Made by a program: the position numbers
Source of the DNA: Candidatus Nanohaloarchaea archaeon
GTDB lineage: Archaea; Nanohalarchaeota; Nanosalinia; Nanosalinales; Nanosalinaceae
Assembly: GCA_047617745.1 (NCBI GenBank)
Contig: JBLGBN010000010.1
Span: 1 to 29,918, forward strand
Direction of reading: 5' to 3'
Length of the DNA stretch: 29,918 bases
Part shown: piece by piece, positions 6,001 to 12,000 of the stretch
How positions within the stretch are numbered: the stretch's first letter is position 1
Layout of the letters: each line of letters opens with the position of its first letter

Positions 6001-9000
6001 TCTTCCACTATGAAATAATCTACACTGCCGATTTCCTGACCCAGTACCGCTTCCTGGTAGGAATCCATCACCTTTCTCTTCGCGACCTCTTCTACATCCA
6101 TTGCATCGATTTCCGGAACATCTGCCTCCACCTGTACAAGTTCATACCCGGCCTCTCTAAACGGAGGTTCCATCTCCTCAAGTTTGCCTTCATTGCCAGT
6201 CGCGAAGAAAATCGGTTTCATATGAACCGGTTATTTTTCACCTACATATAACTTTTCCAACAATACTGAGGTATGAAACTTGACAGAAAAGACCTCGAGA
6301 AAACTATTTCGGAGATCGACCTAGATAACATGTATTTTCCAGAATCCCTCGACAGGATAATAGGTCAGAACGGTGAGGAGCTTTACATTGACCGGGATAA
6401 TGATTATCAGACCTGGGTAGAAGAAGCTGAAAAATGGGACGAAGCACCAAGAGAGACGGCCTGGATAGAGGACTACAATACTTTGGATGATGAACTGGAA
6501 GATCTGCTCAATGAGGAAGCAAAGAAAGATATGAGATATCCAGGGCTAGAGGGCGCTAAATTCGCGGAAACTATGATAGAAATAGGTGAAGAAGCCGTGG
6601 AAGGAGACAGCTTCGGCGGGACGGTTATAGGATTTGAAATGCCGGAAATCGATGGAAACGAAAACCAGAGACAGCTTATAGCTCCTCAGGGTGCAGATTC
6701 CATGCTAGATGCTCCTGAGTGGCTTGACAATGACGACTGGTACTCTAATGTGGGTGAAGGGGAGTATGTAGCTGTAATCACTGATGACCCTACAGCCTTC
6801 GCCAGATATGTAAAGGACAATTTCCAGAAAGAAGGAGACTTCATCCAGAGCTTTGACGATAGATTCTGGAGGGCTTACGAAGAAACACTGGACAGTTACA
6901 CAGGTCTAGAATAAAAAAGGAGTTAAAACAGTTTCTGAAGCATTTCCCTCTAGGTGAACCAAAATTTCAGAGGATCGAATAACTGTCACATCAGCACTGC
7001 CGTACATCCACGGAGTACCGCATCTCGGAAACATGGCAGGAAGTGTCTTACCTGCGGAGCTTCTACACAGATACTTCGACGTTAGAGGAAAGGAAAATAT
7101 TTTCGTCTGTGGAGGCGATGTGCACGGAACACCACTGGAGCTGGAGGCTCTGGAACGTGGCGAAGATCCTCGAGACATCAAAGATGAACAGACTAAGAAA
7201 GTTAGAGAAGCGTACGAAAGCCTGAACGTCGACTTCACAATTTTCTCCGATACCCACAGTGAATACAACAGAAAACAGACACACGACATGTTCGAAGAGC
7301 TTTACTGCAACGGATTGATAGATGAGAAAACGCAGACGATGCCGTACTGCAACGACGATGAAAGATTTCTCCCGGACAGGTATATTGAAGGAGAATGCCC
7401 GCACTGCGGAGGTTTAGCTAGAGGAGACCAGTGCGACGACTGCGGAAAACTTGTGGAACCTGACGAGATAGAGAACCCGGAGTGCCAGATCTGCGGAGGA
7501 AATGATATCGAGTTCAAGGATACAGACCACCTGTTCCTGAACCTAACAGAGTACAAGGAAGACCTCAAGCAATGGATTAAAGACAGGGAACCGGTACCGG
7601 ATAACATGGTCAACCAGGTTCTCCACGATATAGAGGAAGCGGAGGAGAGATCAATTACACGGGACCAGGACTGGGGCTTTGAAATCCCTGTAGAAAGAGT
7701 AAACGAAAAAATAGAGGAAGAAGATCTGGAAATCGAGAAACTGGATCCGGAAAGGTACGACGAAAAAGTTCTGTATGTCTGGTTTGACGCACCAATCGGA
7801 TACATAGGTTTCACAAGAGAGTACTTTGAAGACTCCGATGAGTGGAAGAAACACTGGAACCAGGACGCGGATATATACTACTCAATTGGAAAGGATAACA
7901 CTATCTTCCACACGGTTATCTGGCCGACAATGCTTCTCGGCTCTAGAAACGATGAGATAGAGTACGGTCTGCCGGAGTACGAGTTCATCCAGCAGTACCT
8001 GATGTGGGAGGAAGGAGCTTTCTCCAAATCCCGGAACAGGGGTATCTTCATCGATGAAGCAGTGGAGCATTACCCTGCGGATTACTGGAGATTCTACCTG
8101 TCGAAGATGCTTCCAACTGACCACGACACCAACTTCTCCTGGGACGACTTCGAATCCGAGATCAACAACGTACTGAACGATACAGTCGGCAACTTCGTGA
8201 ACAGAACACTGAGCCTAGCAGAAAAATGGTTTGATAATGAGGTTCCAGAGGTAAATCTAACGACTAAAGACGAGGAAGTAGTTGAAGACGCAGAGGAAGC
8301 TGTTAAAGAATACATAGAAGCCTTTGACGAGAAGGAGCCTCAGGAAGCGCTGGACCATGCGCTTGAATTGGCAAGACTAGGCGACCAGTACCTGAGTTCA
8401 GAGGAACCATGGAACAATGAGGACAGGCGAGCGGAGACAATACATGTTTCACTACAGCTAATCCAGAAACTTGGTGTTACACTCCACCCATTTATTCCGG
8501 AAAGCGGTGAAAAGATATTCGACATGCTTAACACAGATATCAAACCTTCTGGAGAGGAAGACTTGCTTGGGAAAGATGTTCTCGGAGGTCTGGAAACCGG
8601 TCAGAAGCTAGGAGACCGGGAGATTTTATTCGAGAAAATCGATGTCTCAGAGCAGAAAGAAGAAAAACAAGAAAATAAGGAAGATACTATGACAGACAAA
8701 TTTAATGAAGATACGGTTTCATTCGACCAGTTCGGAGACATGGACCTCCGGATTGGAAAAGTGGAATCAGTCGAGGAGCATCCAAACGCCGACAAACTCT
8801 ACAAGGTCAAAGTCAACGTGGGAGAAGCAACGCTTCAGACCTGCGCAGGACTCAAGAATTTCTACGAACCGGAAGAGCTAGAAGATAGGAAAGTAGTCGT
8901 GCTCGCTAATCTGGAACCAGCAGAGCTTCGTGGAGAGAAATCGGAGTGCATGATGCTAGCCGCAGAATCGGATGACGGGGAAACAGTATCGCTTCTAGAT

Positions 9001-12000
9001 ACCGACAAGGAAATGGAAGTAGGGGATAAGATAAAGTAACTAACCAACTAACTGGACTTTCATCCCATCCAGTTTTCTCTCAACTTCTTCTAAGTTGTGA
9101 TTTGCCACAGTATAAAGATCATTCCCTGTGACAAAGTTATCACCATGGAAATGGTGTTCAGGATCCAAGTAACCGGCTACCTCTAGATCCAATGCTTCTT
9201 CCGCATAATGCAGGTAGACTTCACCTTCATTCTGATTTCCATCTATATCGTGATACTCCCATCCTTCTGTTTTTACAACCCAAAGATCACCATTGCTGTC
9301 ATAGCCAGCTAGGTCTCCTGTGGAGAAATTATTGTCATCCTCTGGAGCGGGATTTTTATGTACGTATATTTCGTCTCTTTTGGAAAACCCCGGTAAAAGG
9401 GAGACATCAGCTGTTCTTTCTTCAGTTTCAATTATATCTAAACTAATTACAGACACCCTAATTATACTCCCACTTTCGGCCTTGATTTTTCGCCCGGAGT
9501 TGCCTCAAATCCGATTTCTAGAGATAATTCAGGCTCCCTAACTGCTTCTTCTACTGTCATTTCGCTAGCTCGATGGATATCTTCCTTCACGTCCTCGATA
9601 AATTGTCCTTCTAACTTTGCTCGTTCAACAAGTTCGTTATTGCCTGAGCTAATATAATCTGATATAGTGTTTAGGTCACCGGTTTCGAGAACCTCCTGAA
9701 CCGAGTATTTTTTATCAGGAAAAGATTGATCATATGAAATTTCTGGCAAAACTGTAACATCTTCTTGTTCAAACCCTGCTTCCAGAAGGCTCTTGTAAGT
9801 GTTCTCGGCGCACATTTCAATATACCCTCCGCCAAGCATAATCTGGTCGTAATCCTGACGTAGTTCCTCCGCATCCTCTGTGCTTAACTGGCCTGCCGTT
9901 TCTTCTTCAAGAATCTCATCAAATTCAGACTCATGGTAGGGATCGGAGTTCACATCTGCAGAGTTTACAACATAGGTGTCGAACTCTGCATCAGACACGA
10001 TTTTCGAAAGCTCTTCGTATGTAACTCCTTCATCAAATTCTTCATGTGGATGCGTAACAACAAGAGCAACCTCATCATACTTGTCCACTAAGTTTTCACC
10101 TCAATTCTCCTGAGTTCAACATCTCTAACTGGAACTTCTTCTCTGAGTTCTTCAAGTTTTTCATCCGCGACCGAACTGTAGATTGCGTCCGCACTCATAT
10201 GTTGTTATTTAGTGATAGTAACATAAAAAGGTTCTGGTGTTTCGGCGGATTCTTATTCTTTAGGACGCTATTTCACTGTATGAAGCTGAAATTCCTGGGT
10301 ACGGGCGGCGGAAGGTTTGTGACCGGAAGCCAGAGAAGAAAAACCGGCGGCATACTAGCCATAACCGATGAAACACAGATTCACATAGACCCCGGACCTG
10401 GAGGACTAATTCAGGCACAGGATAATAAGCCTGAGGATACGGAAGCAGTTATTGTTTCCCACGCACATCTCGATCACAGCAACGATTCTGAACCTCTAAT
10501 AGAAATGATGGCATACATCCACGACCACCCTGGAGCGCTTTTCGCGAATGAGACCTGTCTGGCCGGTTACTCGGATATGGAGAAATGCATCAGCGACTAC
10601 CATCAGAACCTATGCAGAACAGTTGAAACACTGGAAGAAGATTTTGAAACAGAGTTCAAGGACCTAAAGATTCGGAGCCAGGAAATGTTTCACAGCGATC
10701 CGAAAACACAGGGCTTCGTTCTCGAAACCGATGAGAAATCTATCGGTTTCTGGACCGACACGGAGTTCTCAGAAGAACTGGTCGATTTCTACAGCGGCTG
10801 TGACACAATAGTTATCTACTGTAACCGGCCGACAGGAGAAACTCTGGAAGGCCATACCTCGCTGGATGAAGTACCTGATATTGTAGAAGCTGTGCAACCT
10901 TCGACAGTGATAATCACAGATTTCGGATACAAGTTCCTGAATCAGGATCTGGATGAGGAGAAAGAGTGGCTGGAGGACAATATCGATGCAAAGGTTGTGT
11001 TTGCCGAGGACGGTATGGAGTTCCCCGGTAACCGAAGTCTCGGAGATTTCTAGAACCTGAACTCAAAACCCATTTAAGAATTCCAGCAGAAAAAGTTCTC
11101 GTGAGGCCGTAAAATATGCCTGAAGGAGAATACGACGCTGAAAAAGTTGAATCGAAGTGGCAGAGAAAATGGGTTGAAAACAAAACTTTCGAATACACCG
11201 GTGACAGAGATACAGATCCGGATGAAGTGTTCTCAATAGATACTCCGCCACCAACTGTGTCAGGCTCACTTCACATGGGTCACCTGTACGGACAGACACT
11301 ACAGGACTTTCAGGCACGATTTCAACGCATGAAAGGCAAAAAAGTATTCCAACCAATCGGATACGACGATAACGGGATCGCATCTGAACGACTTACAGAA
11401 AAAGAACTTGGAATCAGACACCAAGACTATACCAGAAGAGAATTTCAGGAGAAATGCCGGGAGGTCTGCCAGGAATACGAAGAACAGTTTACAGAAAACA
11501 TGCAAAGCCTAGGTCTAAGCCATGACTGGACAAATACTTACAAGACTATAGAGCCAAGAGTTCAGAGAATTTCACAGCTCTCCTTCATAGATCTTTATGA
11601 AAAAGACAGAGAATACCGGAAGAAAGCACCAGCGATCTGGTGTCCGGACTGCGAGACAGCAATCAGCCAGGTTGAAACAGAGGATGACGAACAGCACTCC
11701 CACTTCAACGACATAGAGTTCGAAGTTAAAGGCGGGGATTCATTTGAAATTTCTACTACAAGACCGGAGCTTCTACCAGCTTGTGTAGCAGTATTTGTAC
11801 ACCCGGATGACGAGGAGAACCAGCATCTGGTAGGAGAAAAATCTATTATCCCTCTATTCGGGCATGAAGTCCCTATAATTGAAGATGAAAGAGTCGACAT
11901 GGATACAGGGTCTGGGATCGTTATGTGCTGTACATTCGGAGATCAGAACGATATCGAATGGTATCAGGCACACGATCTTGATCTGAAAATTGCTATCGAT

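Follow-up and report, generated by a model that had tools for sequence, protein, structure and literature searches.

A conserved non-AUG start codon of the methionyl-tRNA synthetase gene in Nanohaloarchaeota and other archaeal phyla

Introduction

Methionyl-tRNA synthetase (MetRS) charges the initiator tRNA, and its gene, metG, in a 29,918-nt stretch of DNA from a Candidatus Nanohaloarchaea archaeon (contig JBLGBN010000010.1; hereafter the window) raises the question of where translation begins when the called AUG lies downstream of a catalytic motif, and of what a poor start codon at this gene might achieve. In the reviews of archaeal initiation consulted, the start codons named are AUG, GUG, and UUG, and a regulatory role for the choice of start codon in archaea is left undecided. 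The literature searched, largely outside subscription journals and without supplements, yielded no account of an archaeal metG with a non-AUG start.

Start Site of metG

metG (6964..9039, forward strand) is the single match for MetRS in genome G000 and is predicted to encode a 691-aa enzyme with a C-terminal tRNA-binding domain. A first-pass annotation had placed its start 23 codons before the called AUG, at AUU behind AGGUGA, and the locus bears this out. The Shine–Dalgarno (SD) sequence AGGTGA (6952..6957, forward) is complementary to the 16S 3′ end GGATCACCTCC, present in both G000 and G020, and contains an in-frame TGA stop (6955–57); a 6-nt spacer, ACCAAA (6958..6963), then leads to ATT at 6964..6966, the sole near-cognate codon at SD distance past that stop. 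From ATT the frame reads ISEDRITVTSALPYIHGVPHLGNM, and, as had also been claimed, ATG, GTG, and TTG are absent from it before the called ATG at 7033..7035, 23 codons downstream.

The segment missed by gene calling (6964..7032) comprises the first beta strand and the HIGH-type motif PYIHGVPHLGN (7000–7032), so the called ATG falls 3′ of the motif and removes that region, as previously noted. The called ATG is evidently an internal methionine, the position being Met in 13 of 60 orthologues, Ile in 37, and Phe in 7. Residues 5–23 align with residues 3–21 of the archaeal MetRS structure 1rqg (E 3.6e-149), within a full-length match to this class I archaeal-type enzyme that includes the HIGH region and the C-terminal domain; the protein is ordinary and only its initiation is unusual. 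Ten residues of the HIGH region (T, A, L, P, Y, P, H, L, G, N) are invariant in 60/60 loci, each with 2–6 synonymous codons, and the class Ia features (HIGH-type and KMSKS-type motifs, Zn knuckle, anticodon domain) are found together in one frame only with the 23-codon extension. The public collection holds MetRS of G000 only as a truncated 668-aa product. A methionine-depleted MetRS was considered and rejected, its Met fraction (1.9%) standing at the 42nd percentile of 288 long frames.

A hypothetical ORF upstream (6273..6914, forward) ends before the predicted metG promoter, and the start region is therefore intergenic and free of constraint from an overlapping gene. Judged from the sequence, metG here cannot begin at AUG, GUG, or UUG, which leaves a non-AUG codon 5–7 nt behind the SD as the only workable start.

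Promoter and Leader

The promoter predicted for metG itself has a TATA-like box, TTAAAA, at 6923..6928 (forward), 41 nt before the ATT, with an A-rich BRE-like run just 5′ of it. Among metG loci, NGGTG is present at 57/60, and 46 of 54 TATA matches sit 28–31 nt 5′ of it; in SD-less genes the TATA-to-ATG distance peaks at the equal value of 27–31 nt. The position of the TATA box thereby places the probable 5′ end of the mRNA at the SD, which would make the SD the very 5′ end of a leader of ~12 nt consisting of SD and spacer only. The spacer differs among relatives in sequence and length, as had been reported, with 9, 10, or 11 nt, and once 12, from the G of GTG to the codon; in family f1 the distance is 9 nt in 4 loci, 10 in 20, and 11 in 18.

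This arrangement bears on whether the true start lies elsewhere, either at the GUG within AGGUG, close to where the mRNA begins and with or without slippage, or at an AUG created by splicing or editing. Most loci of the sister families f2, f4, and f5 and of the phylum of G072 have the GTG in frame, and the inferred 5′ end lies 1–3 nt before it. Within family f1, however, the GTG occurs in all three frames; loci L010 and L394 have a stop codon between it and the gene, and L329 carries GCG in its place. Loci L053 and L051, whose spacing is unequal by one base, both keep TTY; in alignments the slot (the codon position behind the SD) falls at the natural Met position and at a true TTG in L327; and a leader of ~12 nt is too short for an intron. 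We regard a start elsewhere as very improbable. A frameshift from the SD GTG was rejected because the GTG-to-slot spacing varies.

Conservation and Recurrence

Across 45 family loci the slot holds ATC (21), ATT (15), GTC (1), TTC (1), ATG (6), or GTG (1), with five assignments (L004, L015, L034, L035, and L043) fixed by eye. The earlier tally of AUU or AUC in 26 of 30 loci was the same in kind (here 36/45), but reversion to AUG is commoner (6/45) than that sample implied. On a tree of 58 rows, metG changes codon 24 times, just 6 of these between the pyrimidine-ending class and ATG/GTG; ATA appears in no row, and AUG was regained ~5–6 times within nanohaloarchaea. A start was termed forced when a canonical codon is absent between the stop and 8 codons before the motif Pro; 34/60 nanohaloarchaeal loci are forced, and in a further 11 GTG occurs only inside the SD.

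Family-wide retention stands as first described, and the trait reaches further than was then supposed. Forced non-canonical metG (CTA, CTG, CTC, ATA, TTC, TTA) is found in 25/121 loci of five other archaeal phyla, with 8/30 in the phylum of G071, 8/24 in that of G074, 6/28 in that of G073, 2/20 in that of G070, and 1/19 in that of G072; GTG occurs only inside the SD in a further 1, 7, 1, 2, and 10 loci, respectively. metG is canonical in 28/28 loci of a sixth other archaeal phylum, that of G076, and in 65 bacteria; the sampled archaea leave out Thermococci, methanogens, and Halobacteria. Nanohaloarchaeota at large retain the non-AUG arrangement, and five other phyla show it again with codons particular to the lineage (AUY, UUY, GUC, CUN, AUA, ACG).

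Most control genes of these genomes start at canonical codons. serS does so in 30/30, and of the metG genes paired with it 6 are forced and 7 probably so; a canonical codon is present in aEF1A (23/23), aEF2 (23/23), aIF5B (19/19), and the 16/16 Ile/ValRS genes parsed, these controls outside nanohaloarchaea covering few gene families and no genome-wide background.

Two other genes share the trait. aIF2γ, which carries Met-tRNAi, has ATA or ATT at the slot in 10/10 genomes of the phylum of G074 (3 forced; TTG or GTG lies few codons upstream in 7/10), and two Asgard genomes show AGGTGA, 6 nt, and ATT, forced; it is canonical in G000, in G020, in 5/5 genomes of the phylum of G071, and in 4/4 of that of G072. 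aIF2α and aIF2β start with ATG in G000 and G020. The ATP-synthase gene ntpI starts with ATA, ATC, or ATT in 24/30, retained family-wide; ATA occurs 9 times against 15 ATY there and 0 against 36 at metG (kin not being independent), and the conserved AUH starts of ntpI count against metG being unique. ntpI encodes a one-copy subunit inside an operon and has no link to methionine.

Initiation Machinery and Genomic Background

The first-pass annotation had allowed that metG may be one more case of relaxed initiation, and as a blanket explanation this fails. Some 87% of 449 G000 orthologues start with ATG and ~2% with near-cognate codons, and aIF1 was found in 57/70 genomes, including 27/28 near-complete ones; the lineage thus shows neither common non-canonical starts nor a lost fidelity factor. 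aIF1 was not found in G000 (89% complete), and its presence in so many genomes led us to reject aIF1 loss as the cause. Its own gene starts with ATG in 9/10 loci and GTG in 1/10.

A narrower version would have metG as one of the SD-led archaeal genes in which near-cognate codons are tolerated, decayed by drift and not yet reverted. It can point to ~7 (G000) and 5 (G020) SD-led near-cognate starts among the 449 orthologue pairs, most of them unshared, to the ATC start of a ThiS-like gene in many genomes in which the end of the upstream gene overlaps it, and to CTG starts in 4/83 flanking genes in the phylum of G071. It has to accommodate, however, one gene affected in six phyla by differing codons beside canonical controls from few families, two-mismatch codons (TTC, CTA, GTC) in an essential single-copy gene, ATA in 0/45 family loci, and the near-universal aIF1 of near-complete genomes; we consider drift improbable. 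The proposed selection for a poor start is thus supported, and we conclude that the non-AUG start of metG is genuine and maintained by selection.

The initiator tRNA is normal. A second initiator-like tRNA (GAU anticodon, A1-U72, three G-C pairs) was rejected, tRNA-Ile(GAU) being an ordinary elongator in G000 and G020; output of the low-threshold tRNA scan was mostly noise. An MCT-1-like loader was not found in G000 (89% complete), whose single PUA match is presumably a Cbf5/TruB-like protein.

Possible Functions of the Start Codon

A close parallel is the autoregulation of bacterial infC (IF3), a translation-initiation gene that has kept an AUU or AUC start codon positioned by an SD (PMC5499595; PMC4705826), a choice that matches the exclusion of ATA at metG. 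Like infC, metG has a conserved non-canonical codon behind an SD, and a codon-discriminating factor is available in aIF1, seen in most genomes if not in the incomplete G000 and described as discriminating against AUU in Sulfolobus in vitro (PMC4705826). It differs in that its product is a tRNA synthetase and not the fidelity factor itself, in belonging to Archaea, in codons that vary by phylum, and in that feedback is here a proposal. In eIF1 and BZW1/2 autoregulation it is likewise the poorness of the start that is conserved and not an exact sequence; those starts, by contrast, are AUG codons set in a weak context for scanning, and the proteins themselves demonstrably tighten start selection, as MetRS is not known to do (PMC5823381; PMC4705826).

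On the reading that we tentatively favor, at not quite an even chance, the metG start codon gives feedback on initiator supply. metG, with its own promoter, would retain the SD-and-spacer leader in place of the leaderless AUG that is the lineage's default; the SD would hold a poor codon in the P site, aIF1 would reject most initiation attempts there, and MetRS output would read out the stringency of start selection. When charged initiator tRNA or ternary complex became scarce, selection would relax, either because vacant SD-anchored P sites take mismatched or elongator tRNAs or because aIF1 is titrated by waiting 30S subunits, and metG would gain share relative to AUG genes until initiator supply was restored. 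Such a loop would resemble that of infC but sit one step upstream, with the substrate as its target in place of the fidelity factor. The autoregulation first suggested stays conjectural, favored by the parallel in aIF2γ, the other supplier of ternary complex, and disfavored by ntpI, by the AUG starts regained within nanohaloarchaea, by the canonical phylum of G076, by the canonical aIF2γ, aIF2α, and aIF2β genes noted above, and by the failure to find an MCT-1-like loader in the incomplete G000. A start merely dependent on Met-tRNAi would give positive rather than negative feedback, which would count against autoregulation.

The sign of the loop requires that scarce Met-tRNAi relax start selection, for which E. 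coli offers a precedent and human data run contrary. E. coli depleted of initiator tRNA is reported to initiate with elongator tRNAs and more often at non-AUG codons, as a leak in engineered strains and reporters (PMC7949028; PMC7082066). The near-cognate starts of human cells mostly carry Met and need eIF2, and in one example eIF2 loss lowered an extended ORF and not the AUG ORF, the wrong sign for feedback (PMC8287933).

The human data sit more easily with static damping, in which Met-tRNAi would start at the near-cognate codon with a constant, low efficiency. MetRS would be kept at a low level with no feedback, and AUG reversions would overexpress it and usually be purged. In favor, every codon seen at the slot is ACG or has a middle U, which suits a CAU anticodon; the initiator tRNA is of the canonical type; and ntpI, as a one-copy operon subunit with the same trait, fits stoichiometric damping; a possible motive for low MetRS is the limiting of mis-methionylation. 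Against this, metG has its own promoter, so that its level could be set by transcription, and other synthetases lack such damping; metG also keeps a dedicated SD leader in G000, where 279 of the 449 orthologous genes lack an SD and begin with ATG and where only 3 TATA matches precede the 39 ATG+SD genes. We rate static damping a real contender, if a less probable one than feedback.

A bolder form of the feedback reading, which we think unlikely, is that many archaea, Asgard included, have a homeostat of translation initiation, in which the ternary-complex suppliers MetRS and, in some phyla, aIF2γ start at SD-pinned Ile, Phe, Val, or Leu codons that are opened by their cognate elongator tRNAs when Met-tRNAi is short. 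If this is true, cells would start the methionine-charging enzyme without methionine at precisely the time they required it. No natural gene is known to exploit elongator-tRNA initiation under low initiator supply.

Conclusion

In public data metG is mis-called without its catalytic motif, at least for G000. An essential gene that keeps a non-AUG start in six phyla, two-mismatch codons among them, gives a natural test case for the fidelity of aIF1 and lets one ask whether initiator-tRNA supply is sensed at translation. For a salt-loving nano-archaeon and several other archaeal groups, this start may let cells couple the output of the enzyme to the supply of start tRNA.

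The Start of metG and Its Leader

The non-AUG start of metG is real, under selection, mis-annotated and spread across archaea. In the window the gene (6964..9039, plus strand, 691 aa) opens at ATT, 23 codons upstream of the called ATG at 7033. Beyond a TATA-like TTAAAA (6923, plus strand), the sequence runs AGGTGA ACCAAA ATT TCA GAG GAT CGA ATA ACT GTC ACA TCA GCA CTG CCG TAC, and the TGA within the Shine-Dalgarno sequence (SD) is an in-frame stop, so that ACC, AAA and ATT are the sole codons ahead of the coding sequence. From 7033 back to this stop the frame contains no ATG, GTG or TTG, as the first-pass annotation had stated, and the 23 codons align with the beginning of the solved archaeal MetRS 1rqg. 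The AUU start proposed in that annotation is borne out. It was also right that the called start cuts off the HIGH-type motif, which sits in this extension. Ten motif columns are fixed in 60/60 relatives with synonymous codons varying freely, and the called Met is Met in only 13/60. The genome holding the window (G000) has one metG match, and the public collection contains only the truncated product.

Both G000 and the compared genome G020 carry the anti-SD GGATCACCTCC. TATA-like boxes lie 28-31 nt ahead of NGGTG in 46 of 54 matches (57 loci), which is the TATA-to-ATG spacing of SD-less genes. Because NGGTG stands where those genes have their ATG, we infer that the metG mRNA starts at the SD, with a predicted leader of about 12 nt. 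The GTG of the SD was itself considered as the start and ruled out: it occurs in all three frames, stops separate it from the gene in L010 and L394, and L329 has GCG instead.

Elsewhere in the window, ATG begins three genes that we take to be valS (11116-13731), the gene for release factor aRF1 (15150-16397) and one resembling archaeal SAM synthetase (21766-22902). An 807-aa protein (1376-3799, minus strand) looks secreted, carries a vWA-like motif and has a membrane anchor at its C-terminus; it is a possible surface adhesin.

Conservation in the Family and Class

metG was matched in 62 of 70 class genomes, and N-termini were retrieved for 60. The poor start codon is kept across the family, as previously claimed: at the slot 5-7 nt behind the SD, the 45 family loci have ATC (21), ATT (15), GTC (1), TTC (1), ATG (6) or GTG (1), five being corrected by eye, and ATC/ATT thus account for 36/45. 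The 15 sister-family loci have TTC (6), GTC (5), TTT (2), ATC (1) or ATG (1); the SD's GTG is in frame in most, some have an ATG nearby, and forced loci are limited to L049 and L053, a locus counting as forced when it has no canonical codon between the stop and 8 codons ahead of the motif proline. About seven forced loci contain a GTG/TTG within the first strand, where a start would cut that strand. We regard a metG start other than the slot codon as very improbable.

A quick tree of 58 rows, from which L059 and L060 were left out as too short, shows 24 changes of the slot codon, including nine ATC/ATT flips within the family and six changes to or from ATG/GTG. ATA is absent from the slot in all 58 rows, and three of the AUG revertants have also lost the SD. 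Drift is unlikely as the explanation.

Distribution in Other Phyla

All 65 bacterial metG parsed (among 77 distant loci, one from the unpublished G078) are canonical. Archaeal phylum samples are identified here by the labels of their seed records. Forced loci, and loci with GTG only in the SD, number 2 and 2 of 20 parsed for G070 (Nanoarchaeota), 8 and 1 of 30 for G071 (Bathyarchaeia), 1 and 10 of 19 for G072 (Micrarchaeota), 6 and 1 of 28 for G073 (Heimdallarchaeota), 8 and 7 of 24 for G074 (Methanobacteriota), and 0 and 0 of 28 for G076 (uncultured archaeon); these counts leave out eight unparsed loci, and the slot of L313 is unclear. Slot codons differ by lineage (CTA/CTG/CTC, ATA/ACG, TTC/TTT, TTA); one record labelled Nanoarchaeota, from the 77 distant loci, has AGGTGA, 6 nt and TTC behind an in-frame stop, and 13/28 metG of G073's phylum start at TTG/GTG. 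Two Asgard genomes hold two tandem MetRS-family genes (G219 C9:366178-369076; G230 C218:8249-11144).

Gene Specificity

Since kin are not independent, no P values are relied on. serS is canonical in 30/30 loci (39 genomes matched); of the metG genes paired with these, 6 are forced and 7 probable. In genomes picked for non-canonical or probable metG, a canonical codon is available to aEF1A (23/23), aEF2 (23/23) and aIF5B (19/19), and likewise to Ile/ValRS in 16/16 parsed (20 loci; one duplicate, three unparsed). The exception is aIF2γ, which carries Met-tRNAi (L437-L447, L540-L547, L566, L568): its slot is ATA/ATT in 10/10 genomes of G074's phylum, three forced and seven with TTG/GTG a few codons upstream, and two Asgard genomes have AGGTGA, 6 nt and a forced ATT. 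Canonical options exist in two more Asgard copies, in every copy from the phyla of G071 and G072, and in G000 and G020.

Among metG-flanking genes, real CTG starts number 4/83 in G071's phylum and 0/33 in G072's. SD-led CTG starts occur in L318, L320, L322 and L365, in a gene downstream of metG, presumably PHP-domain-like, and in another, presumably ThiI-like.

Initiation is not generally relaxed on the nanohaloarchaeal counts. Across 449 G000-G020 orthologue pairs (gene names being readings of sequences), about 87% of G000 starts are ATG; SD-led near-cognate starts number about seven in G000 and five in G020, and three are common to both: metG, ntpI and a ThiS-like gene. ntpI, encoding A/V-type ATP synthase subunit I (G000 C12:16787, plus strand), has an SD-led ATC (12), ATA (9) or ATT (3) in 24/30 family loci (L161-L190) and a canonical start in 6. 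In many genomes the ThiS/ubiquitin-like gene, ending in GG (G000 C1:101934-102143, minus strand; L131-L160), has its ATC start directly behind an in-frame TGA, mainly where it overlaps the last codons of the upstream gene, which we take to be MazG-like; where that context differs it mostly has ATG/GTG. SD-led near-cognate starts specific to single genomes, in genes named from sequence, lie on G000 contigs C8, C20, C4 and C1 (prephenate dehydratase-like CTG, dephospho-CoA-kinase-like ATT, lpdA-like ATA, pdhC-like ATC, ADP-kinase-like CTG) and in G020 (FtsY-like ATT).

The fidelity factor aIF1, its own start canonical, is present in 57/70 genomes and 27/28 near-complete ones; the initiator tRNA shows A1-U72 together with three G-C pairs, and tRNA-Ile(GAU) is ordinary. 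G031 has two tandem aIF1/SUI1 matches (C1:780976-781481). An intron-bearing tRNA-Ile(UAU) occurs in G000 (C33:3246-3373) and G020 (C1:727126-727326), and a search of five genomes for the agmatidine synthetase TiaS (PF08489) found it in none; AUA may be decoded without a modified CAU tRNA. Elongator tRNA-Met(CAU), with an intron, lies at G000 C16:13861-14014; scans as for G000 detected none in G020.

Possible Function

Sulfolobus aIF1 rejects AUU in vitro (PMC4705826), so metG translation should be weak and stringency-sensitive, resembling that of infC (PMC5499595) and BZW (PMC5823381). Static damping, in which the poor codon would simply hold synthesis down, is possible if somewhat doubtful. 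Feedback, to which we give a little short of an even chance, would require scarce Met-tRNAi to relax start selection. The needed sign is reported for elongator-tRNA initiation in E. coli (PMC7949028, PMC7082066) and the opposite sign for human cells (PMC8287933). Every slot codon has a middle U or is ACG, suiting near-cognate Met-tRNAi and hydrophobic elongator tRNAs alike, so that sequence cannot discriminate between them.

No report of a non-AUG archaeal metG was found in the literature outside supplements and subscription journals, which may hold relevant N-terminal data. The terms 'non-AUG', 'autoregul' and 'methionyl-tRNA synthetase' are absent from a 2020 archaeal initiation review (PMC7531240), and Haloferax profiling detected near-cognate candidate starts and then set them aside (PMC7261190). 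Where the poor start lies, how it is conserved and its gene specificity are established; the codon is probably used in these archaea, any regulation through it being putative, and metG would represent a new variant of poor-start control.
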